Below are positions 1 to 52,183 of a stretch of 64,000 nucleotides of DNA, one piece after another. Source of the DNA: Spirochaetaceae bacterium (lineage in GTDB: Bacteria; Spirochaetota; Spirochaetia; DSM-2461); assembly GCA_051531975.1 (NCBI GenBank), contig JAOPTT010000014.1:32001-96000 (forward strand), read 5' to 3'. The translations under genes and the position numbers were made by a program. The notes below the pieces were generated by a model that was not told where the DNA came from, did no database searches, and worked only from the letters and a program-made list of their open reading frames with translations. The number at the start of each line of letters is the position of its first letter. The first letter of the stretch is position 1.

Positions 1-1112
1 GAGTTTATCTGATAATAAGAAATTTTCTCTCCATCAGGTCCAAATAGATCTTTTAAACGTCCACCTCTTTTTTTGATAATTGAGATAAGATCTGATATTC
101 TAGTTTCGTCTAATAGTCCTTTAACATCTAAAAGAGGTATTCCATCGTGACAGCCGAGCATATTAAATGTTTTATAGCCTTTTACCTGTATCTCTTTTAT
201 CCATCTAAGTAGGTTTCTATTTTCCTTAAATTCAATAGCATCTAAAACAAGTCCAGGGAAGAAAAAGTCATAAATAGCATAACCTTTATCTGCTAACTTT
301 TCATGTAGACCAACCTCATATTTACTATGTATTTCTGGTAGAAGCACTATATTGTATCTATCTGCTATACTTTTAATTCTAGCTAAGTATTCCCAGGTAC
401 CTGGTTCATTAAAGAAGTTACTGTATCCTATTTTTTTATGTAGATATGCAAATGCATCAAGTCTAACAATTGTTGAACCATAATCACTTAGTTTTCTAAA
501 AGTTTCTTCATAGAACTCCCAAACTAAATTACAATTTGCATTTAGATCCATCTGTCCAAGATATGATATTTTACTGTTTTTTTCCTTAGTTATCTTCTGA
601 TAAAATGTATTCCAATAATATCTACTACTACCATCTGGGAATGGAACCTTTAATACTGGAAGACCTGGTTTTCTCATAAACAGTTTTGAAAGGTACTCTT
701 TATTAGGAATTATTAGTCCATCCTCATTTAAAGTACCTTTACCTTCCCAGTATCTATTCCAATCGATAAACATATGCACATATTTTGATTTATCACCTCT
801 GTTTAACAGATCCTGGAATTGTGGTGACAGTACAGAGAGATGATTTAAAACAAAGTCTAATTTTAGGTTTATATTCATATTCTGAAGATCTTCTAAATTA
901 TTATAATTCACCATTTCTTCATCTAGGTCATAACTTTTAATAGAAAACCCACGATCTAAGTCAGATTTAAACATTGATGGAAGTATATAAAGAAGAGAAA
1001 AAAGGTCCTTGAACTGCTCTTTTTTTAATATATCCACTATCACATCCAGATTACCACCAATACTATCAGGATAAACATTTAACATAACACCGTTAAATAT
1101 AGTATTATCCAT
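1..1112 (-). CDS. GH13_18 sucrose-phosphorylase-family enzyme, probable sucrose 6F-phosphate phosphorylase (partial, runs off the window start)
   Basis: Missing from the ORF track. Manual translation gives MDNTIFNGVMLNVYPDSIGG...DLDRGFS...DFVLNHLS...VRLDAFAY...LLPEIH...LGCHDGIP...GEKISYYQIN. The ATG at 1112 overlaps the end of the upstream gene. Confidence 0.85.
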   Translation of the reverse strand, partial: MDNTIFNGVMLNVYPDSIGGNLDVIVDILKKEQFKDLFSLLYILPSMFKSDLDRGFSIKSYDLDEEMVNYNNLEDLQNMNINLKLDFVLNHLSVLSPQFQDLLNRGDKSKYVHMFIDWNRYWEGKGTLNEDGLIIPNKEYLSKLFMRKPGLPVLKVPFPDGSSRYYWNTFYQKITKEKNSKISYLGQMDLNANCNLVWEFYEETFRKLSDYGSTIVRLDAFAYLHKKIGYSNFFNEPGTWEYLARIKSIADRYNIVLLPEIHSKYEVGLHEKLADKGYAIYDFFFPGLVLDAIEFKENRNLLRWIKEIQVKGYKTFNMLGCHDGIPLLDVKGLLDETRISDLISIIKKRGGRLKDLFGPDGEKISYYQIN

Positions 1113-1986
1113 TAAAATCTCCCTTGGTTATGATGTTCCCTGACTTACCTACTATTAAAAAAGAATCCATAAATTGATTATTAATTTTATTTTGCTCAAT
1201 CTCTAATACACAATTTGTAAATGATGAATTCACCCCTTTATCACGGCCTCTAGATACCCTATGAGAAAGAGTCTCCCCCGGGGTACTAAATAGAAACACA
1301 GGGTAATCAACACCTTTTAAGTGAGGATTATTGCCATGGGTCCATTCAATAATAAGAACCTCAGTATCTTTAAAATCTATCTTCTCAAAACTTATATCAT
1401 TTATAGTTCGTCCCATTCTTTTTAGATTTATAAATCTTCTGTTATTTTTAAAATCCCCAATAATACTGTTTAATAGGTTAAAATCGACTTCTTTTTCTGA
1501 CGCCAGATATTCCCAAAGAGCCTTTTCACCTGCAACCTGATATATAGATAAAAATGGTTTTGTCCTAGCAATGTCTTTATTAAAATCATCTTTGTTGGCC
1601 AAAAGTTTATTAAGTTCTAATGTCCAAGTAGGATTAAATCCGTTATTGTTTTTTAATCCTAAAAGGCCAGCGTATCTAAATCTATTTAATCTTTCTAAAT
1701 CGTTGTACTTTGGGATTCTATATGGATAGTTATCCCCAGATAAAACATATGTCTTAACACCATTTTTGGTGAGTTCTGATGCTAATAGAGATCCTATTTC
1801 AGACTTCCCTACACCAGATCCTCCATATACAGATATAACAGTTTTATGTCCTGATTCTTTTATTTTATCAAATATTATTGGGTATATTACTTCTGCTCTC
1901 TTAATATGTGATTCATCAATACTTATTTTATCCCCTGGCATATCACCAAAAATGAGATTAATATCTTTATTCAATATGTTCTCCAT
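1105..1986 (-). CDS. P-loop (NMP/uridine-kinase-like) kinase, candidate sucrose kinase
   Basis: Walker A GGSGVGKS, plus LSGDNYP and LIIEWTHG motifs; translationally coupled to the GH13_18 gene. Confidence 0.6.
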   Translation of the reverse strand: MENILNKDINLIFGDMPGDKISIDESHIKRAEVIYPIIFDKIKESGHKTVISVYGGSGVGKSEIGSLLASELTKNGVKTYVLSGDNYPYRIPKYNDLERLNRFRYAGLLGLKNNNGFNPTWTLELNKLLANKDDFNKDIARTKPFLSIYQVAGEKALWEYLASEKEVDFNLLNSIIGDFKNNRRFINLKRMGRTINDISFEKIDFKDTEVLIIEWTHGNNPHLKGVDYPVFLFSTPGETLSHRVSRGRDKGVNSSFTNCVLEIEQNKINNQFMDSFLIVGKSGNIITKGDFNG

Positions 1987-2643: not shown

Positions 2644-3515
2644 CCTTTAACAGAACCTGCCATCATTCCTCTTACAAAAAACCGTTGTAATGAGAAGAAA
2701 ACAATAAGTGGAACTATCATGGTTAAAAATGCACCTGAAGTTAAAATATGCCAATCTTGACCACGGGAACCTACCATTTCTGCCAATCTTGTAGTAACAA
2801 GAGCATTCTCTTTTTTTGTTCCCAAAAATACCATAGCAACAAGTAGATCATTCCACACCCATAAGAACTGGAATATTGAAAAGGCCGCAATTGCTGGGAT
2901 AGATACTGGTAAAACTAACATTGTAAATGTCTTCATGGGACTTGCACCATCAATATGTGCAGCTTCTATCATTTCTGACGGAATTGTAGATATAAAACCA
3001 TATAAGAGATAAATAGCTAAGGGTAGTCCAAAACCAGTATGGGCTAACCAAACACCTAAATAAGTTCCATTTAATCCAAGTTTTGTATATAACTTTAACA
3101 TTGGGATAAGTGCCATCTGTAAAGGAACAACCATTAATCCTACAACAATTACAAAAAATACCTCTTTCCCTGGAAAGTTCATCCATGCAAAAGCATATGC
3201 CGCAAATGCTGCTATAGTTATTGGTATTACAGTAGACGGGATTGTAACTAATAAACTGTTAACAAATGCATTCCCCATTCCATCTGCAAGTATTACATCG
3301 GTATAGTTACTTAAAGTCCATTTAGTAAAATTAAATGGGTGTGCTAATTGGGTCCACCATCCCGATGATGTAATATCTTCAGGGGGTCTAAAGGAGGAGA
3401 TTAAAAGTCCAATAGATGGAAGTGTCCATAAAAAACATATTAATATAATTGTTAGCTGTAGAGGTGTAGAACTTATCAACTCCCGAAAAAAGCTTTTCTT
3501 ATTTATCTGTTTCAT
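2640..3515 (-). CDS. carbohydrate ABC transporter permease (AglG-like)
   Basis: EAAHIDGA loop, FQFLWVWNDLLVA, multiple TM segments. Confidence 0.9.
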   Translation of the reverse strand: MKQINKKSFFRELISSTPLQLTIILICFLWTLPSIGLLISSFRPPEDITSSGWWTQLAHPFNFTKWTLSNYTDVILADGMGNAFVNSLLVTIPSTVIPITIAAFAAYAFAWMNFPGKEVFFVIVVGLMVVPLQMALIPMLKLYTKLGLNGTYLGVWLAHTGFGLPLAIYLLYGFISTIPSEMIEAAHIDGASPMKTFTMLVLPVSIPAIAAFSIFQFLWVWNDLLVAMVFLGTKKENALVTTRLAEMVGSRGQDWHILTSGAFLTMIVPLIVFFSLQRFFVRGMMAGSVKG

Positions 3516-4618
3516 CGAACACTCCTATTCTCTCTAAGATTTTTAATGTTATATATCAGTACAGGAACAACCGCTACTAATAGGATTACGGCCAAAGCAC
3601 TACCCCTACCATAGTTCCTGAATACAAATGACTCTTTATAATATCTAAGTGCAACAACACTTGTATCATACTGACCACTTGTCATAACAAAGACGATATC
3701 AAATATTTTTAAAACCGCTATTAAAACTGTTGTCGTAACAGTTAATATTGTACTTTTAATAAACGGAACTATTACATGAAAAAATATAGTAAATTCATTG
3801 GCTCCATCAATTTTTGCAGCTTCAACTAATGATCCAGGTACACCTTTAACAGCTGCAGATAAAATAACCATTGCGTAACCTGTTTGTAGCCATATCATAA
3901 TTACCATTAAAAAGAAATTATTCCATGGTCTTTGAATAAGCCATCCGGCAGGCTCCCCACCTAATGCAACAACAATTGCATTTAATAGACCAATTTGTTC
4001 TTGACCTGGAGGTTGGTAATAATAGATAAATCTCCATATAACTGCAGCACCAACAAATGATATTGCCATTGGCATAAAAATAAGAGATTTTGCAATCTTC
4101 TCCCATTTAACCTTGTCTACTAAAACAGCTATAACAAGGCCTAATGATACTGTAAAAAATGTTACAAATATTAACCATAAAAGGTTATTTCTTAAAATAA
4201 TTAACATACTTTCGTCTGTTAATGCAAAAATATAGTTCTTTAACCCTACAAATTTATCACCTTTTCTATCTAAAAAACTCATTACGAATGTATGAACTGC
4301 TGGATAAACAAGGTATGTTCCCAAAATAGCTAAAGCGGGTCCAACAAATACAAATGGTCTTAACATCTCCCTTATTTTTCCAGGTAAATGTGAAACTAAA
4401 TTATCCGCTGATACAAATATTACCCAAACACCTAGGACACCAATTATTAAAGCGATGATCCCAATTGTAAATTTAGAAGCATCTGAATCCCTCATAAAGA
4501 TGAAACTCCATCTTAATATGGCAAATGCTAAAATAGGAATCGTTACAGAGATTGCAACCCTGCCAGGTCCCATAGCCAAGACATCAAAGATTCCAGTATT
4601 TTTCTTCTTTTTGTTCAT
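3512..4618 (-). CDS. carbohydrate ABC transporter permease (AglF-like)
   Basis: EAAKIDGA loop, FMPMAISFVGA, multiple TM segments. Confidence 0.9.
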   Translation of the reverse strand: MNKKKKNTGIFDVLAMGPGRVAISVTIPILAFAILRWSFIFMRDSDASKFTIGIIALIIGVLGVWVIFVSADNLVSHLPGKIREMLRPFVFVGPALAILGTYLVYPAVHTFVMSFLDRKGDKFVGLKNYIFALTDESMLIILRNNLLWLIFVTFFTVSLGLVIAVLVDKVKWEKIAKSLIFMPMAISFVGAAVIWRFIYYYQPPGQEQIGLLNAIVVALGGEPAGWLIQRPWNNFFLMVIMIWLQTGYAMVILSAAVKGVPGSLVEAAKIDGANEFTIFFHVIVPFIKSTILTVTTTVLIAVLKIFDIVFVMTSGQYDTSVVALRYYKESFVFRNYGRGSALAVILLVAVVPVLIYNIKNLRENRSVR

Positions 4619-45327: not shown

Positions 45328-46074
45328 ATGGAAGAAAAAAAACTTCGACAATACGATTTTGTAACAGCCATTGGACTAATATTATTTAGTTTTTGGGAAC
45401 TTGCAGAAGCACTTAAAATGCCTATGAAGGAATCATATGGAGGAGTACAAAACGATTGGTATGTATCTCCTGCTCTTCTGCCTCTTTTTATCGGTCTAGG
45501 AATTCTGCTTTTAGGAACACTTTTATTAGTTAATGCAATAAAAAGTGGCGGTGCTAAATCATTTATTGATGCAGCTAAAGCTAGTTCAAACATGAAGTTA
45601 ACTGTGGAGACTAAAAGAGTTTTTACTACAGTATTAGCCCTATTTACATTTATATTTTTACTTATTCCAAATGTAGACTTTTTCCTGAGCATAATACTAT
45701 TTCTTTTTGTTATATGTTCAGCATTTCTACCAGATGAGGAAGAGTACAGAAAAATAATAAACGGACAATTAATTATTGCAGCTATCGTATTATCAGTAAT
45801 AGCTTTTACTGGTGTTGGCGACCTATTAAGGGGAGTATTTAAATATACACTTGATATTTTAGCTTTACTGTTTATTATCTACATTAATATTTATAGTCGT
45901 ATTAAAGCTAAGGGTTTTAACTTTTCCGCTAAAATTTTGAGAAAAATAACTATTATATCAATAATAGTTCCTTTAATACTTTGTCCATTATTTCGGTATT
46001 TTTTACTTGTACCGCTACCGGTTGAAGGTGGAATCATTAAACTAATGAACCTTCTTTATTACACAATAAGATAG
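45328..46074 (+). CDS. TctB-like membrane subunit (long form)
   Basis: WYVSPALLP and LLVPLP motifs, TM-rich; lies between tctC and tctA. Confidence 0.75.
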   Translation: MEEKKLRQYDFVTAIGLILFSFWELAEALKMPMKESYGGVQNDWYVSPALLPLFIGLGILLLGTLLLVNAIKSGGAKSFIDAAKASSNMKLTVETKRVFTTVLALFTFIFLLIPNVDFFLSIILFLFVICSAFLPDEEEYRKIINGQLIIAAIVLSVIAFTGVGDLLRGVFKYTLDILALLFIIYINIYSRIKAKGFNFSAKILRKITIISIIVPLILCPLFRYFLLVPLPVEGGIIKLMNLLYYTIR

Positions 46075-46087
46075 GCAGGGAGGTCAT

Positions 46088-47638
46088 ATGGAATTTTTAG
46101 AACCGTTACAGGTATTTTTAGTTAATATAGGTGGATTAATAACTAATCCAGTTTCCATGCTGATTCTTTTTGGATCTGTTATTATGGGTATCGTATTTGG
46201 AGCAACACCAGGATTAACAGCAACTTTAGGTGTAGCATTATTAACAACATTAACATATGGAATGGATGTTTCAACAGCAATGGTTGCCCTAATGGGTATT
46301 TACGTTGGTGGAGTTTATGGTGGTAGTTATACTGCGATATTAGTAAACATTCCAGGAACAGCAGCATCGGCTGCAACAGCATTAGATGGATATCCACTAG
46401 CCTTAAAAGGCCAAGCTGGACGAGCACTTGGTTTAACTACTACTTCATCAGCTATTGGAACAGTTATTGGAATGGTATTTGTTGTACTTCTATCTCCGAT
46501 AATCTCCGCTTTAGCACTTGAGTTTACATCCTTTGAGTTCTTTTTACTTGCACTTTTTGGTATTGTAATTAGTGGAACTTTAACCAGTCAAGATTTAGTT
46601 TACAAAGGTTGGATCGCAGGACTTATAGGTCTATGGTTTTCAACAATTGGTCGAGATAGTCTACAGTTCTTCCCAAGATATACTTTTGGAATGAATGAAT
46701 TAGAAGGTGGTTTAGACCTTGTACCTGTTCTTATTGGTGCATTTGGTATACCACAAATAATGCAGACAATTAGAGACAATTTTAAAATAAAAGAGACAAA
46801 AAAGTTTAAAAGAATATTACCTGAGATTGGTACAATAGTAAAAAATACTCCATCTATAATTAGATCATCTTTAATAGGTGTTGGTATTGGAGCTGTTCCA
46901 GGAATCGGGGAAGATATAGCAGGTTGGGTATCATACGGTGCGGCCAAAAAAGCTAGTAAACACCCAGAAGAATTTGGTAAAGGTTCAGTAGAAGCTGTAA
47001 TATCAACTGAGACAGCTAATAATGCATGTATTGGTGGAGCAATGATTCCTCTATTAAACTTAGGAATTCCAGGAAGTCCTCCAGCAGCAATGTTATTAGG
47101 TGCTTTTATGTTACATGGTATACAACCTGGTCCCATGTTAAGTATTGATAGACCTACATTTGTTTTAGAGATAACTGCAATTTTACTACTAGCATCCATT
47201 ACGATGTGGGTATGTGGAATGTTATTAACTAAACAAGTTATTAAGGTTTTAAAAATACCAACATCCCTATTTATGCCAATAATTGCAGTACTTTGTGTAA
47301 TTGGTTCATATGCACTTGGAATGAGAATTTTTAACCTATACTTAATGTTACCTATAGGAATAATAGCTTACTTATTATCCGAAATGAAATATCCAATTGC
47401 CCCACTAATAATTGGAGTAATACTTGGAGATATGTGTGACCAAAACCTTAGAAGAGCATTAATGGTTTCTAAAGGAAGTTTCATGCCAGTACTTACTAGG
47501 CCAGTGTCGTTAGTATTAGTAATAATAATTTTAGTACTAATTGCAGGACAGATTCCATTCTTTCAGAGATTACAGAAAACAATGAAAGATAAGTTTATGT
47601 CTATGTTTAGCAGAAAGGTTAAAACAGAAGAAGCTTAA
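46088..47638 (+). CDS. tctA: tripartite tricarboxylate transporter permease TctA
   Basis: GATPGL, NIPGT, DGYPLA, ETANNA and LGIPGS motifs. Confidence 0.93.
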   Translation: MEFLEPLQVFLVNIGGLITNPVSMLILFGSVIMGIVFGATPGLTATLGVALLTTLTYGMDVSTAMVALMGIYVGGVYGGSYTAILVNIPGTAASAATALDGYPLALKGQAGRALGLTTTSSAIGTVIGMVFVVLLSPIISALALEFTSFEFFLLALFGIVISGTLTSQDLVYKGWIAGLIGLWFSTIGRDSLQFFPRYTFGMNELEGGLDLVPVLIGAFGIPQIMQTIRDNFKIKETKKFKRILPEIGTIVKNTPSIIRSSLIGVGIGAVPGIGEDIAGWVSYGAAKKASKHPEEFGKGSVEAVISTETANNACIGGAMIPLLNLGIPGSPPAAMLLGAFMLHGIQPGPMLSIDRPTFVLEITAILLLASITMWVCGMLLTKQVIKVLKIPTSLFMPIIAVLCVIGSYALGMRIFNLYLMLPIGIIAYLLSEMKYPIAPLIIGVILGDMCDQNLRRALMVSKGSFMPVLTRPVSLVLVIIILVLIAGQIPFFQRLQKTMKDKFMSMFSRKVKTEEA

Positions 47639-47685
47639 TACAACACAATAAAACTAAATTAAACAGAATATCTCAGGAGTAAATT

Positions 47686-48522
47686 ATGAATAATAATGAA
47701 AAGACAATCGAGCTACGTCTAAAAGCTAAAGAGCTTCGAACAACAACATTAAAAATGATACATAAAGCTGGTTCAGGACATCCTGGAGGTTCTTTATCAG
47801 CTGCAGATTTTATGACTGCGTTATATTTTAATGAATTAAATATTAGACCAGAAGAGCCTAATTGGGCAGATAGAGATCGGTTTGTTCTATCAAAAGGTCA
47901 TGTTTGCCCTATTTTATACTCTTCTTTGGCTCTAAAAGGATATTTCCCATATAAAACAATTTATACATTAAGGGTTCAAGGTTCCATTTTACAAGGTCAC
48001 CCTGATATGAAAGTTTGTCCAGGTATTGATATTAGCACTGGGTCTTTAGGGCAAGGTTTATCAACTGCTGTAGGAATGGCATTAGCTGCTAAAAGAGATG
48101 GTAAAGATTATAGGGCATTCTGTGTAGTTGGGGATGGTGAGTGTAACGAAGGTCAGATTTGGGAAGCTGTTATGACTGCTGTTAAATACGAGTTAGATAA
48201 CTTAGTTATTATTGTAGATAACAACAACTTACAAAATGATAATTCATGTGATGTTGTAATGCCTACAGGTGACCTTAAAGGTAAGTTTGAAGCCTTTGGA
48301 TGTGAGTCTTTTGATATAGATGGTCATGATATGGCGGAAATATTGGATACATTAGATAAAATTAGAGCAAGCAAAGTAAAAGCTCCTAAATGTATTGTTG
48401 GTAAAACTGTAAAAGGTAAAGGTGTATCTTTTATGGAGAATGTTGTTGGATGGCATGGAATGGCTCCTAACGATGAGCAACTAGCAATAGCACTAAAAGA
48501 GATAAACGAGGTAGAAGTATGA
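47686..48522 (+). CDS. split transketolase, N-terminal (TPP-binding) subunit
   Basis: SGHPGGSLS, DRFVLSKGH, TGSLGQG and GDGECNEG motifs. Confidence 0.93.
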   Translation: MNNNEKTIELRLKAKELRTTTLKMIHKAGSGHPGGSLSAADFMTALYFNELNIRPEEPNWADRDRFVLSKGHVCPILYSSLALKGYFPYKTIYTLRVQGSILQGHPDMKVCPGIDISTGSLGQGLSTAVGMALAAKRDGKDYRAFCVVGDGECNEGQIWEAVMTAVKYELDNLVIIVDNNNLQNDNSCDVVMPTGDLKGKFEAFGCESFDIDGHDMAEILDTLDKIRASKVKAPKCIVGKTVKGKGVSFMENVVGWHGMAPNDEQLAIALKEINEVEV

Positions 48523-49463
48523 GTGGAAAAGCAACTAGAGAAGCGTACGGTGAAGCGATATTAGAATTAGGAAAGGCAAATCCAGATATATATATAGTAG
48601 ATGCAGATATTGGTAAATCATGTAAAACTACTGCATTTTTTGAGCAGTTACCTAGACAACATATAAACGTTGGAATTGCAGAGCAAAACTGTTGTGGTGT
48701 AGCCGCTGGTTTAGCAACAACAGGTAAAATTCCATTTGTAACTACATATGCAGTATTTGGTAGTATGAGAATGGTTGAACAAATAAGACAAGAAGTTTGT
48801 TATCCTAAATTAAATGTTAAAATAGCATGTTCACATGGCGGATTTACTCCTGCAAGTGATGGTGCAAGCCACCAAGCTATTGAAGATATGGGTATTTTAA
48901 GAACTATTCCAGGTATGACAGTTATTATGCCTGCAGACTACTACTCTGCTAAAAAATTAGTTCATGCTGCTGCGAAAATGCATGGTGCTGTTTATTTAAG
49001 ATTTACTAGAGACCCAATACCATTTATCTACCCAGAAGATGCTGAGTTTGAAATTGGTAAAGCGGTTGAATTAAAGAAAGGTTCTGATCTTGCAATTATA
49101 GCTAATGGAGATATTATGTCTATTGCTGTTAAAGCTGCTGGAGAGCTAGAGAAACAAGGGGTATCAGTTAGAGTATTAGATATGCATACAATAAAACCAC
49201 TAGATGAAGATGCTGTGAACAGAGCAATTGATGAGTGTGGTAAAATAATTACTGTTGAAGACCACAATATTTTAAATGGTTTAGGTAGTGCAGTATGCGA
49301 AATTGTAGCTGAACGTGGTAAAGGTAAAGTAAAACGTGTAGGAATCCAAGATAAATTTGGAGAGTCTGCACCATATGAGTATCTACTTGGTATTAATGGT
49401 ATTACTATCGGGAATATAGTAAAATCTGCCCAAGAGATGCTTAAACAGAGAGGTAAACAGTGA
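48519..49463 (+). CDS. split transketolase, C-terminal subunit
   Basis: GIAEQN, DGASHQAIED and TIKPLD motifs. Confidence 0.93.
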   Translation: MSGKATREAYGEAILELGKANPDIYIVDADIGKSCKTTAFFEQLPRQHINVGIAEQNCCGVAAGLATTGKIPFVTTYAVFGSMRMVEQIRQEVCYPKLNVKIACSHGGFTPASDGASHQAIEDMGILRTIPGMTVIMPADYYSAKKLVHAAAKMHGAVYLRFTRDPIPFIYPEDAEFEIGKAVELKKGSDLAIIANGDIMSIAVKAAGELEKQGVSVRVLDMHTIKPLDEDAVNRAIDECGKIITVEDHNILNGLGSAVCEIVAERGKGKVKRVGIQDKFGESAPYEYLLGINGITIGNIVKSAQEMLKQRGKQ

Positions 49464-50416
49464 AAATAGTAGTACTAGATGGTTATTCATTAAATCCTGG
49501 TGATCTATCCTGGGATGGATTTAAAAGCCTAGGAGATTTTGTCTGTTACGACAGAACAGAGATAAAAGATATATTAGCAAGAATTGGCAATGCTGAAATT
49601 GTAATTACAAATAAAACACCCTTAGGTGCAGAAATAATTTCAGCATGTCCAAAGCTAAAATACATTGGTGTTTTAGCAACAGGATATAATGTTGTTGATG
49701 TAAAAGCTGCAACAGATAATAGTGTAACGGTTTGTAACATCCCAACTTATGGTACAGCTGCAGTAGGGCAATTTGTTTTTGCTCTACTTCTAAATATTTG
49801 TCACCATGTACAAGATCATAGTGATGCTGTTAAAAAAGGACAGTGGACTAGTTCCCCTGATTTTTGCTTTTGGAATTATCCATTAACAGAGTTAGCAGGT
49901 AAAACTTTGGGTATAATTGGTTATGGTAGAATTGGGCAATCTACAGGTAAAATTGCTCAGGCTTTTGGTATGAATGTTATCGCATTCGATGCATATCATA
50001 ATAAAGATTTAGTTTGCGATACAATGAAGTATGGAACATTAGATGATCTATTAAAACAATCTGATGTTATATCACTTCATTGTCCACTATTTGAATCTAC
50101 GGTCGGTATAATAAACAAAGATAGCATAGCTAAAATGAAGGATGGAGTTATTATTATAAATACATCTAGAGGGCCTTTAATTGTAGAGGATGATTTAGCT
50201 GTAGCTCTTAAAAGTGGTAAAGTTAGAGCTGCTGGTTTAGATGTTGTATCAACTGAACCAATAACTTCTGAAAACGTACTACTTAATATAGAGAACTGTT
50301 TTATTACACCACATATTGCTTGGGCTCCTATTGAAGCTCGAGATAGACTAATGAACATAGCTGTAGATAATCTTAAATGTTTTATCGATGGTAATAATCA
50401 AAATAGTGTAAACTAA
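49460..50416 (+). CDS. D-2-hydroxyacid dehydrogenase (glycerate dehydrogenase / hydroxypyruvate-glyoxylate reductase family)
   Basis: LDGYSLNPGDLSW, GYGRIG, INTSRG and TPHIAWA motifs. Confidence 0.9.
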   Translation: MKIVVLDGYSLNPGDLSWDGFKSLGDFVCYDRTEIKDILARIGNAEIVITNKTPLGAEIISACPKLKYIGVLATGYNVVDVKAATDNSVTVCNIPTYGTAAVGQFVFALLLNICHHVQDHSDAVKKGQWTSSPDFCFWNYPLTELAGKTLGIIGYGRIGQSTGKIAQAFGMNVIAFDAYHNKDLVCDTMKYGTLDDLLKQSDVISLHCPLFESTVGIINKDSIAKMKDGVIIINTSRGPLIVEDDLAVALKSGKVRAAGLDVVSTEPITSENVLLNIENCFITPHIAWAPIEARDRLMNIAVDNLKCFIDGNNQNSVN

Positions 50417-50438
50417 TATAGATCAAAAATATCCTATG

Positions 50439-50463
50439 GAGGACTTGTTATAAACAAGTCCTC
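50439..50463 (+). terminator. intrinsic terminator of the isomerase-TTT-transketolase operon
   Basis: GAGGACTTGTT-ATA-AACAAGTCCTC followed by TTCTATTT. Confidence 0.8.
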
Positions 50464-50565
50464 TTCTATTTATAACATAGTTATTTACATATAAAATAAA
50501 AAATTGTTTCAATTTTTCTATATTCAGTGTGATAATAGAAAACAGAAATTAAAGGATGTATTACT

Positions 50566-51072
50566 ATGTATGATACTCGTAATGAAATATGGAATTCTAC
50601 TTGGAACTCATATTATGATACTTTTTATCAAGAGTTATTAGCTGAAGAATTAGAAGTTAGATGGAAGCGATTTGATGACATATCTAGAATTCTTATAGCA
50701 ATTACCGCATCAACCTCTGCTATATCTGGTTGGGCACTATGGAGTAATAAAGACTTCAAAATTATTTGGGTTTTTCTTGCAGCAATCGGCGCATTACTTT
50801 CTTTAGTTACGAAATCATTAGATATTCCCAGGAGAATATCCGATTGGAATGATTCAAAAAAATATTTCACAACACTTAGAATTGATTACCAAATTTTTTT
50901 AGATGAACTAGGGTTTAATCCCGAATTTTCTACTATCGATGCAACCGTAACAGTTCGTAATCTCAGACTAAGATATGCTGAAGGTTATAAGGAGATGCTT
51001 AATGATTCCTTCATAACTCAGAAACTTAAAATCATGATACAAGATAGTGTTAACAATAACATGAAACAATAG
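50566..51072 (+). CDS. two-TM helical membrane protein, SLATT-like architecture
   Basis: N-terminal helix, two TM segments (ILIAITASTSAISGWALW; IIWVFLAAIGALLSLV) and a helical C-terminus; AAAGGA RBS. Confidence 0.6.
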   Translation: MYDTRNEIWNSTWNSYYDTFYQELLAEELEVRWKRFDDISRILIAITASTSAISGWALWSNKDFKIIWVFLAAIGALLSLVTKSLDIPRRISDWNDSKKYFTTLRIDYQIFLDELGFNPEFSTIDATVTVRNLRLRYAEGYKEMLNDSFITQKLKIMIQDSVNNNMKQ

Positions 51073-51097
51073 TATACTTATAGTAAGGAGTAATAAA

Positions 51098-51172
51098 ATG
51101 GGAATCAAATCAGGACCACCAAAACCAAAGCCATCACCACCACCTAGACCAATGCCATCATCATCTAAATAA
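51098..51172 (+). CDS. 24-aa proline-rich micropeptide MGIKSGPPKPKPSPPPRPMPSSSK
   Basis: Strong RBS TAAGGAG 7 nt before the ATG; below the ORF-track size cutoff. Confidence 0.6.
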   Translation: MGIKSGPPKPKPSPPPRPMPSSSK

Positions 51173-51199
51173 AAATCACAAAAACATCCTGCTCTAATT

Positions 51200-52156
51200 T
51201 TATATTAATGATAATAGAATATATAAAATAGGAACTGTATAAATTAAAGTACCCATTGTAAATAGCCAGGAAGTATTAGATAAGTCTATATCTAGATCGT
51301 AAACAGTTGGCGGAACTAAGGATGCAAACCCTGAAGGCATAGCTGATAAAATAAGTATAACTTTAATAACTAAGCCATTCTCCAAAGTATTTAATCCAAG
51401 TAACATTGCTATGGAAAATATTATAGTAGGAACCATTAAAGATTTAATTACAGCAATGGCAATACTATTTCTATAATGTCTTTTTATACTGGTAAAGTGA
51501 AACGCCATTCCTATTGATAACAGAAGCAAAACAGTTGCTCCAGTAATCAAGAAACTATTTAAAGATGCATACCATCCAGGCCTAACAGCTCCAGAAAAAT
51601 TAAGAATAAGACCAATTGTAATCGCAGTTAACATAGACATGATAAAAGGATCTTTAAAAATAGCTTTTAGCCTACTCTCCTTCTCTCCAACATGATCAGA
51701 ATATGATTTAGCAACTGGAAAGCCAATACCATAATTTACGAGCTCTTCAAATAGTTTATATAGTGGAACAATACTAAAACCAGGTTCTCCTAAAAAGAAA
51801 AATACAATAATCCCACCTACAGAACCTATATTAGTAAAAGCTCCAGAAGTTATTAACGAACCAGTCTGCTTTCGACCTATCCCCTTAGCTTTACAATATA
51901 TAAAAGCTAAAAAACCACCAGTAATAATAGCTGTGGCTCCAACAAATGGGATACTTATTATTTTCAGATCTTTTAATGGAGTTATCCATACAGCACCTAA
52001 AAATGCTATAGGGTTTAATAACTGTAATGCTACTCTTTGTAATACGATTCTAATCTTTTTTAAGCTTCCGATTTTTTTATTGAAGATTCTACCAAATAAG
52101 TAACCAGCAACAAGACTTAAAAATATCAATAATAGTGGTGATAAAAATGATTTCAT
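51200..52156 (-). CDS. AEC (auxin efflux carrier / malate permease) family transporter
   Basis: About 10 TM segments; FTNIGSVG and LSAMPSG motifs. Confidence 0.8.
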   Translation of the reverse strand: MKSFLSPLLLIFLSLVAGYLFGRIFNKKIGSLKKIRIVLQRVALQLLNPIAFLGAVWITPLKDLKIISIPFVGATAIITGGFLAFIYCKAKGIGRKQTGSLITSGAFTNIGSVGGIIVFFFLGEPGFSIVPLYKLFEELVNYGIGFPVAKSYSDHVGEKESRLKAIFKDPFIMSMLTAITIGLILNFSGAVRPGWYASLNSFLITGATVLLLLSIGMAFHFTSIKRHYRNSIAIAVIKSLMVPTIIFSIAMLLGLNTLENGLVIKVILILSAMPSGFASLVPPTVYDLDIDLSNTSWLFTMGTLIYTVPILYILLSLI

Positions 52157-52183
52157 AATCAATTATATCCAGTACTAAATATT

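Follow-up and report, generated by a model that had tools for sequence, protein, structure and literature searches.

A conserved pair of genes for a SLATT_4-like membrane protein and a basic proline-rich micropeptide

Proteins of the SLATT_4 family and the wider SLATT superfamily, which Burroughs et al. reportedly defined in 2015, are all-helical, about 170 amino acids (aa) long, and composed of an N-terminal helix, a transmembrane (TM) hairpin, and C-terminal helices. They are widespread as predicted pore-forming immunity effectors. Passages in two papers describe SLATT proteins as predicted pore-forming effectors that are coupled to enzymes (PMC7159879; 10.64898/2026.04.29.721553), and according to the second of these passages a SLATT protein is required for both the defence and the toxicity of DRT10 (10.64898/2026.04.29.721553). 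Here we report on a stretch of 64,000 nucleotides (nt) from an uncultured marine Spirochaetaceae bacterium (GenBank assembly GCA_051531975.1, contig JAOPTT010000014.1, positions 32,001 to 96,000), referred to as the window, in which a gene for a 168-aa, SLATT_4-like protein with two TM helices (the 2TM protein) is followed by a gene for a 24-aa, basic, proline-rich peptide. The firm result of comparing this cassette with related loci at the sequence level is that the gene for a SLATT_4-like membrane protein forms a conserved bicistronic module with that for a basic (PX)n micropeptide, and this module looks undescribed. The titles and abstracts searched, a coverage outside which the founding SLATT paper lies, contained no description of a SLATT protein paired with a proline-rich micropeptide.

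The module shares some properties with several described systems and differs from each of them. The 2TM protein has the size, the all-helical fold, and the order of helices of SLATT_4 proteins, but its family scores below the cut-offs for that family, is not accompanied by a SMODS, SLOG, TIR, or reverse transcriptase (RT) partner, and has a proline-rich micropeptide gene instead. The best similarities of the family to PADLOC profiles are to the SLATT effector of DRT10 (UG17) and to the 2TM effectors of CBASS. These effectors depend on an enzyme of nucleic acid or nucleotide signalling, whereas no such enzyme is conserved within two open reading frames (ORFs) on either side of the cassette in 29 loci. 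Two-gene toxin-antitoxin modules likewise consist of two small, codirectional genes that lie near each other or overlap, are patchily distributed, and are inserted between housekeeping genes, but one partner in the present module is only ∼20 to 45 aa long, proline rich, and without a DNA-binding domain. The proline-rich antimicrobial peptides (PrAMPs) that insects and mammals make, like the (Lys-Pro)n/(Glu-Pro)n rod of TonB, are short and basic, have alternating Pro-X with repeats of P-R-P or P-K-P, and should be extended rather than folded. In contrast, the peptides described here are bacterial, have no signal sequence and so are cytoplasmic by default, and are genetically tied to a membrane protein.

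Conservation of the 2TM gene and the peptide gene as a unit

In the window, the 2TM gene occupies positions 50566 to 51072 of the forward strand by ORF translation, and a Shine-Dalgarno-like AAGGA can be read 9 nt 5' of its ATG (50552 to 50556, forward strand). A spacer of 25 nt on the same strand (51073 to 51097) leads to the peptide ORF, which is recognized as a gene from its reading frame and from its conservation across loci (51098 to 51172, forward strand) and is preceded, 7 nt 5' of its ATG, by the ribosome binding site TAAGGAG (51084 to 51090, forward strand). Its product, MGIKSGPPKPKPSPPPRPMPSSSK, contains nine Pro and five Lys or Arg residues and no Asp or Glu. Apart from the AAGGA, these elements had been reported in an initial annotation of the window, made from the sequence alone, and all of them were confirmed. 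That annotation had also remarked that the C-rich codons of the peptide ORF stand out from the AT-rich spacer. The GC content is 0.427 for the ORF versus 0.317 for the window, and the GC skew is -0.34 over positions 51000 to 51199. Metatranscriptome contigs of the same sample (11.5 million letters) contained no match to the stretch, which is not evidence either way.

Loci encoding relatives of the 2TM protein were gathered with a 10-row alignment (A2), 20 of them from species genomes and 80 from metagenomes. After removal of 12 duplicates, 4 loci in which the gene was cut at a contig end, and 1 locus with too little downstream DNA, 83 of the 100 were usable. A downstream ORF was counted if it was on the same strand, started between -60 and +130 nt from the stop codon of the 2TM gene, was at least 12 aa long, and contained a 12-aa window with at least five Pro, at least two Lys or Arg, and a PxPxP-type run. 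The reading in the initial annotation hinged on homologues also having a proline-rich ORF downstream, and a short, basic, proline-rich ORF was found directly 3' of the 2TM gene in 75 of the 83 loci. The same proline-rich test was passed by only 22 of 462 other ORFs of at least 120 aa in these loci and, on the opposite strand at the same junction, in 2 of 83. Among the eight loci that failed, three (L040, L067, and L108) have a peptide that is recognizable by eye and falls under the thresholds, in two (L056 and L078) the match to the family profile is truncated, and in three (L026, L083, and L102) the peptide is missing or doubtful. The GC content of the loci spans 0.27 to 0.71, and seven phylum-level groups appear in their record titles (Bacteroidota, Planctomycetota, Acidobacteriota, Nitrospiraceae, Poribacteria, Sulfurimonas, and Verrucomicrobia). 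Across many phyla, the 2TM gene and the peptide gene are kept together as a conserved unit.

The peptide ORF starts a median of 8 nt after the stop codon of the 2TM gene (30 nt or less in 66 of 78 cases). Of 78 peptide ORFs, 73 start with ATG, 67 are preceded by a Shine-Dalgarno match of at least 4 nt, and 64 encode 45 aa or fewer. No proline core was present in any of 152 homologues of the 2TM protein, and the two products are thus never fused in that set. An all-versus-all BLAST of the 475 ORFs within 3.5 kb found no third partner, in that the only groups common to more than three loci were the 2TM gene and antisense frames that lie within it. The pair has no conserved third gene. These observations are best explained by a self-contained module of two separate genes that has been scattered horizontally.

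Two single loci may be mentioned here. At L067, two tandem proline-rich ORFs follow one 2TM gene, MQPKGPVVEVRKGGAPKAKPQPKP... at about +8 nt and MAVKSLPPRPKPQPKPLRAPGP... at about +180 nt from its stop codon, the second one at positions 1099 to 1185 of that locus. The one locus with a canonical SLATT_4 gene that was inspected (L110; n = 1) has no proline-rich ORF downstream.

The peptides share the core [KR]xG[PA]PxPxPxPxPRPK, which is represented in the window peptide by K4, G6, P7, P8, P10, P12, P14, P16, R17, and P18. An alignment of 40 peptides (A3) has the consensus MxxxGGPPxPxPxPxPRPK, in which P8 and P12 never vary and P10 and P18 are conserved in at least 90% of the sequences. The alternating prolines P8, P10, and P12 are conserved in 95 to 100% of the sequences, and at position 7 there is Pro in 26 and Ala in 11 of the 40. 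All four Pro codons are used at P8 and P12 and all six Arg codons at R17, and close relatives differ in whether they encode Ser at position 5 with TCN or AGY. These substitution patterns show selection on the amino acid sequence of the peptide, with alternating Pro-X rather than polyproline as its target. Among the 74 peptides no longer than 70 aa, the median net charge is +5.

The initial annotation had drawn attention to polyproline runs, which stall ribosomes in a manner dependent on elongation factor P (EF-P). The window peptide does contain GPP and PPP. However, although Pro-Pro is present in 63 of the 74 short peptides, it is absent from the other 11, and PPP occurs in only 19; what is conserved instead is the alternating PxPxPxPxP that leads to RPK. 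Because alternating Pro-X is conserved and consecutive Pro is not, stalling of this kind is not the core feature, and this part of the annotation was not upheld.

Four of the peptides, including that of the window, were looked up by exact sequence and were absent from a collection of 15 billion proteins. The micropeptide family is under clear selection yet has been missed by gene callers. The A3 profile matched no chain at E values of up to 10 in a set of Protein Data Bank (PDB) sequences, a set that does not include chains under 20 residues.

The 2TM protein and its distant likeness to SLATT_4

Two 19-mers of the 168-aa protein are hydrophobic, one at residues 42 to 60 (Kyte-Doolittle mean, 1.37) and one at residues 64 to 82 (2.18). 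The AlphaFold2 model is all-helical (pLDDT, 94.3; pTM, 0.85), with helices at residues 4 to 60, 62 to 85, 87 to 117, 123 to 142, and 152 to 167. The predicted layout is an acidic, aromatic N-terminal helix (residues 1 to 40; net charge, -5), a TM hairpin (∼42 to 60 and 64 to 85), and three C-terminal helices. This is the SLATT-type architecture of two adjacent TM helices with flanking helices, in a protein within the size range of 150 to 200 aa.

Members of the family are rare and patchily distributed. When 5.8 billion clusters were searched by words, one relative was found. An exhaustive HMMER search of 1.84 billion representatives of clusters at 50% identity gave 267 matches with an E-value limit of 1e-3, 177 with a limit of 1e-10, and 11 with a limit of 1e-30, and nearly all of the matching proteins were 165 to 190 aa long and aligned from end to end. 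Members are labelled "hypothetical protein" wherever sources name them. In an alignment of 63 members (A1), residues M1, W9, Y17, E23, W33, D37, S51, G55, W59, W68, R105, and Q159 are at least 90% conserved. At four loci (L027, L029, L091, and L095) the match of the 2TM gene to the family profile is split in two, pointing to a frameshift or decay, and these loci still have a proline-rich ORF downstream.

The initial annotation had considered the 2TM protein to be SLATT-like. Similarity to SLATT profiles was indeed detected, but it is weak and stays under the curated cut-offs. The NCBIfam model SLATT_4 (NF033632) matched the 168-aa protein with an E value of 1.6e-5 and a score of 24.8 bits compared to a cut-off of 55, and weak profile matches span residues 33 to 144. 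Among PADLOC models, the RT-associated SLATT model (1.2e-5) and two 2TM effector models (9.5e-5 and 5.8e-4) matched the same protein, and no Pfam family did so at E values of up to 1. Across the 63 family members, Pfam SLATT_4 (PF18186) matched 5 at E values of up to 1 (best, 1.4e-6), the PADLOC RTasSLATT model matched 14, and PADLOC 2TM effector models matched 7, 7, 6, 3, and 1 (best E value, 4.4e-9). The nearest clusters in the Atlas, which are based on a language model, had a score of 0.96, and 14 to 33% of the members of these clusters carry SLATT_4. The only profile similarities of the family are to effector families of defence systems. Because the profile scores are weak and below the curated cut-offs, we call the 168-aa family a divergent SLATT_4-like clade, a name that denotes weak profile similarity and not membership in a curated family.

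Alignment of A1 with a single SLATT_4 sequence in hhalign gave a probability of 0.3, which is uninformative because a one-sequence profile is weak. By sequence and by fold, no solved structure was close to the protein beyond generic helical bundles. Foldseek found no match of the 168-aa model in the PDB at E values of up to 0.001, and the A1 profile gave only chance-level rows against PDB sequences (E value, 0.42 or worse). A wide VIA-align search had a top Z score of 10.2, to generic helical bundles, whereas a level of ∼13 is advised for helical models. PF18186 matched nothing in the window's own genome at E values of up to 1e-10.

Possible functions of the peptide

For the 41 residues that precede the first TM helix, the median net charge is -5, with a negative charge in 71 of 74 proteins (-5 in the window protein), and the conserved W9, Y17, and W33, as well as E23 and D37, are located in this acidic N-terminal stretch. 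The peptides are positive to about the same degree. Acidic, aromatic surfaces are the usual receptors of basic proline-rich ligands. The density of Lys and Arg is higher on the flanks of the TM hairpin than in its loop of 5 to 6 residues, so that both ends of the protein should be cytoplasmic, the compartment of the leaderless peptide. The extended peptide, being positively charged, may well dock onto the 2TM protein at its N-terminal cytoplasmic helix, which is acidic and rich in Trp and Tyr. The docked peptide would set the activity of the 2TM protein, most likely by keeping a membrane-permeabilising effector closed, and the effector would be released when the peptide is lost, for example because translation is shut off, or displaced. 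Release of this kind would follow the logic of toxin-antitoxin or abortive infection systems. The preferred reading as a whole, namely a toxin-antitoxin-like or abortive infection module in which a membrane-permeabilising effector is restrained by peptide bound to its N-terminal helix, is tentative, with somewhat less than an even chance of being correct. A clade with a tiny peptide as its only conserved partner would be the simplest system for studying SLATT gating, consisting of two genes in ∼680 bp.

A predicted complex of the 168-aa protein and the peptide scored 0.31 against a mark of 0.32, for a peptide that is shorter than any in the calibration set, and so counts neither for nor against binding. 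Several observations weigh against restraint of a SLATT-type effector by the peptide. The similarity to SLATT is under every curated cut-off. The gene order, 2TM gene first and peptide gene second, is silent on which product restrains which. The charge of the N-terminal stretch and that of the peptide are only weakly correlated (Spearman coefficient, -0.22; P = 0.06) among loci that are not independent. In a few loci the proline motif is the N terminus of a larger protein, which a peptide that plugs the effector does not predict.

The neighborhoods of the cassette also count against this reading. Pfam searches with 110 neighbors in 29 longer loci gave a mixed set of mostly housekeeping families, including TIM, ScpB, NAD kinase, semialdehyde dehydrogenase, and GTP cyclohydrolase II, along with the mobile or conflict families AAA_13, MmeI, rve integrase, IS66, and TraG. 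Strong matches to PADLOC models adjoin the cassette in only 3 of the 29 loci (PDC-S06 in L010, type IIG restriction in L027, and PDC-S28 in L103), in addition to a UvrD-type helicase in L097. The usual partners of SLATT proteins (SMODS/cyclase, SLOG, TIR, and RT) were absent among these neighbors, and together with the clustering of the 475 ORFs this agrees with the initial annotation, in which no cyclase or other sensor had been seen near the cassette. No relative of the 2TM protein was found by tblastn in 72,556 plasmid and 50,697 phage records or in a scan of IMG/VR.

A stronger version of the docking proposal is that the peptide is the sole regulator of a SLATT-type effector, in a minimal immune or addiction module, and that it reports translation capacity. 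A proline-dense ORF would need continuous translation, so that the amount of peptide could report the capacity of the cell to translate, and phages might answer with proteins that carry the motif at their N terminus (L112 and L113, described below) as decoys. This version seems fairly improbable. If it were true, the module would be the first example of SLATT gating by a peptide in place of a nucleotide or DNA signal.

It is also conceivable that the 2TM protein has an ordinary membrane role outside of conflict, for example as a stress-gated channel or membrane organiser with a small regulatory subunit, and that gene transfer has made it patchy. Small proteins that regulate membrane proteins are common. 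The housekeeping neighbors (TIM, ScpB, NAD kinase, and GTP cyclohydrolase II), the lack of plasmid or phage copies in the records searched, and the position of the window cassette among metabolic genes are all in accordance with such a role. However, the family is too rare and patchy to fit it well, with none in three congeners, one weak match in 60 relatives, and only 267 clusters at 50% identity among the 1.84 billion representatives; its profile similarities are solely to defence effector families; and some loci abut genes for restriction, PDC-S06, PDC-S28, integrase, IS66, or TraG. An ordinary role is therefore rather unlikely.

Another explanation reverses the roles, with the peptide as the active agent, an intracellular or exported basic proline-rich inhibitor, for instance of translation or of a chaperone, and the 2TM protein as its immunity, sequestering, or export partner. 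The membrane protein is in the usual position of an antitoxin and the peptide in that of a toxin, and the peptides are short and strongly basic (median charge, +5) with PRP and PKP repeats. Animal PrAMPs share such proline-rich motifs. Furthermore, the motif is fused to effector-type proteins, RelE/ParE-like in L051 and L070 and pretoxin-Hint in L084. However, these fusions are three rare events in 83 loci, and the RelE-like fusion lies beside what by eye is its own AbrB-type antitoxin ORF and may be accidental. The peptides lack a signal peptide or leader, their neighborhoods lack conserved genes for export or processing, and the peptide profile matched no PDB chain at E values of up to 10. 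It thus seems quite unlikely that the peptide is the active agent.

It is very unlikely that the small ORF acts only in cis, as a proline- or EF-P-sensitive arrest ORF or as a C-rich site for Rho loading, with no role for the peptide itself. The GPP and PPP of the window peptide and the frequency of Pro-Pro (63 of 74 short peptides) would be consistent with an arrest ORF, and the motif is always at the extreme N terminus, fused and phage-borne forms included. The RNA is C-rich and unstructured, folding no more stably than shuffled sequence (folding z-score, +0.77; GC skew, -0.34). However, Pro-Pro is absent from 11 of 74 peptides and PPP is present in only 19, whereas G6, R17, the terminal Lys, and the N-terminal basic residues have been kept through synonymous changes. 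Start codons and Shine-Dalgarno sites are conserved, there is nothing conserved downstream to regulate, and no Rfam family matched in the cassette region at E values of up to 1.

That the 24-aa ORF is a chance frame and no gene is extremely improbable; its absence as an exact sequence from 15 billion predicted proteins would fit, but this reading is contradicted by the conservation of the ORF (75 of 83 loci, versus 22 of 462 control ORFs), by the synonymous variation around invariant residues, and by the conserved start codons and Shine-Dalgarno sites.

The motif on other proteins and the cassette in its genome

In several loci, the ORF that follows the 2TM gene begins with the proline motif and continues into a larger protein. 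The 221-aa product in L084 (positions 3504 to 4169) continues with an intein/pretoxin-Hint region (domain E values, 2.3e-12 and 1.7e-10), and the 160-aa product in L039 (1774 to 2256) continues with a domain of ∼140 aa for which no family matched. The ORFs in L051 (869 to 1246) and L070 (840 to 1214) continue with a RelE/ParE-like fold. The fusions in L051 and L070/L071 are 124 to 125 aa long and were recognized as RelE/ParE-like from Atlas features (0.92) and from structure comparison (TM score, 0.55 to 0.79). After the RelE-like gene in L051 and L070 is an ORF that appears AbrB-like by eye, and because this looks like the antitoxin of the RelE-like protein, the fusion may be accidental. With three fusion events in 83 loci, the motif looks like a portable docking tag.

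The motif was also found on viral contigs, at the N terminus of a 126-aa ORF in L113 (MGLPSGPPRPIPKPPPRPK...; 1186 to 1566, forward strand) and of a 67-aa ORF in L112 (MTKGPPGPRPKPKPRPK...; 1048 to 1251, reverse strand), where it makes up the first 17 to 19 residues. Neither ORF had a match in Pfam or PHROGs, and no SLATT-like gene was present in the two records, which are only 68% and 16% complete, respectively. These proteins may act as phage decoys; alternatively, the motif may be a general module of N termini. Alternating Pro-X recurs on the N termini of unrelated bacterial and phage proteins.

A relaxed motif pattern also returned recurrent ORFs of ∼54 to 87 aa with the start MC[ILVF]xGGPPxPxPLPxPRPT on viral contigs of 4.7 to 18 kb (L117, L129, L145, L156, L161, L168, and L187, each around position 1501). 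In the hits of this pattern that were analysed, the motif was within 12 residues of the first start codon in 16 of 82.

In the window, the cassette lies between an operon and a convergent gene. The last gene of the upstream operon encodes a D-2-hydroxyacid dehydrogenase (49460 to 50416, forward strand; PF02826, 4.6e-58). The initial annotation had placed the cassette after an operon terminator, and the operon is indeed closed by a terminator-like hairpin 3' of the dehydrogenase gene (50438 to 50464, forward strand), which has a 12-bp stem with five GC pairs followed by a T-rich tail and is also listed among the inverted repeats (I6). The cassette begins 3' of this hairpin. On its other side is a gene for an AEC/Mem_trans family transporter (51200 to 52162, reverse strand; PF03547, 7.6e-07), which is convergent with the peptide gene, the two stop codons being 27 nt apart. 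The operon as a whole (45328 to 50416) also includes genes for TctB- and TctA-like transporter subunits, named by eye, and for a split transketolase, the N- and C-terminal parts of which are separate genes by the same kind of assignment.

The 2TM gene is single-copy in its own genome and was not found in three genomes of the same genus (96%, 81%, and 71% complete). In 60 genomes of relatives, there was one weak match (E value, 1.3e-3), which lies inside a frame of 1,246 aa and was taken as spurious. The cassette had appeared to be inserted, and this impression is supported by a single comparator, the 71% complete genome G003, in which the dehydrogenase orthologue (76% identity) and that of the AEC transporter (64% identity) are convergent neighbors separated by 57 bp that hold one hairpin, compared to 783 bp in the window. 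The cassette is either an addition here or a loss in G003, the only genome available for this comparison. Because the 2TM gene is rare, a gain in the window genome is the more probable direction, as judged from one comparator. The comparison shows that the cassette is accessory in this genus.

An imperfect direct repeat of 22 nt (50530 to 50551 and 51209 to 51230; 82% identity, 11 nt exact) brackets the cassette, with the second copy within the 3' end of the AEC gene. The repeat could be due to chance or could be an insertion footprint; since, by a rough estimate, ∼0.3 such repeats are expected by chance in an AT-rich stretch, it is not claimed as a footprint. A D-2-hydroxyacid dehydrogenase gene also adjoins the cassette in two Poribacteria loci (L017, 3832 to 4776; L029, 3856 to 4800) that are syntenic with each other, and its recurrence beside the cassette is probably a coincidence.

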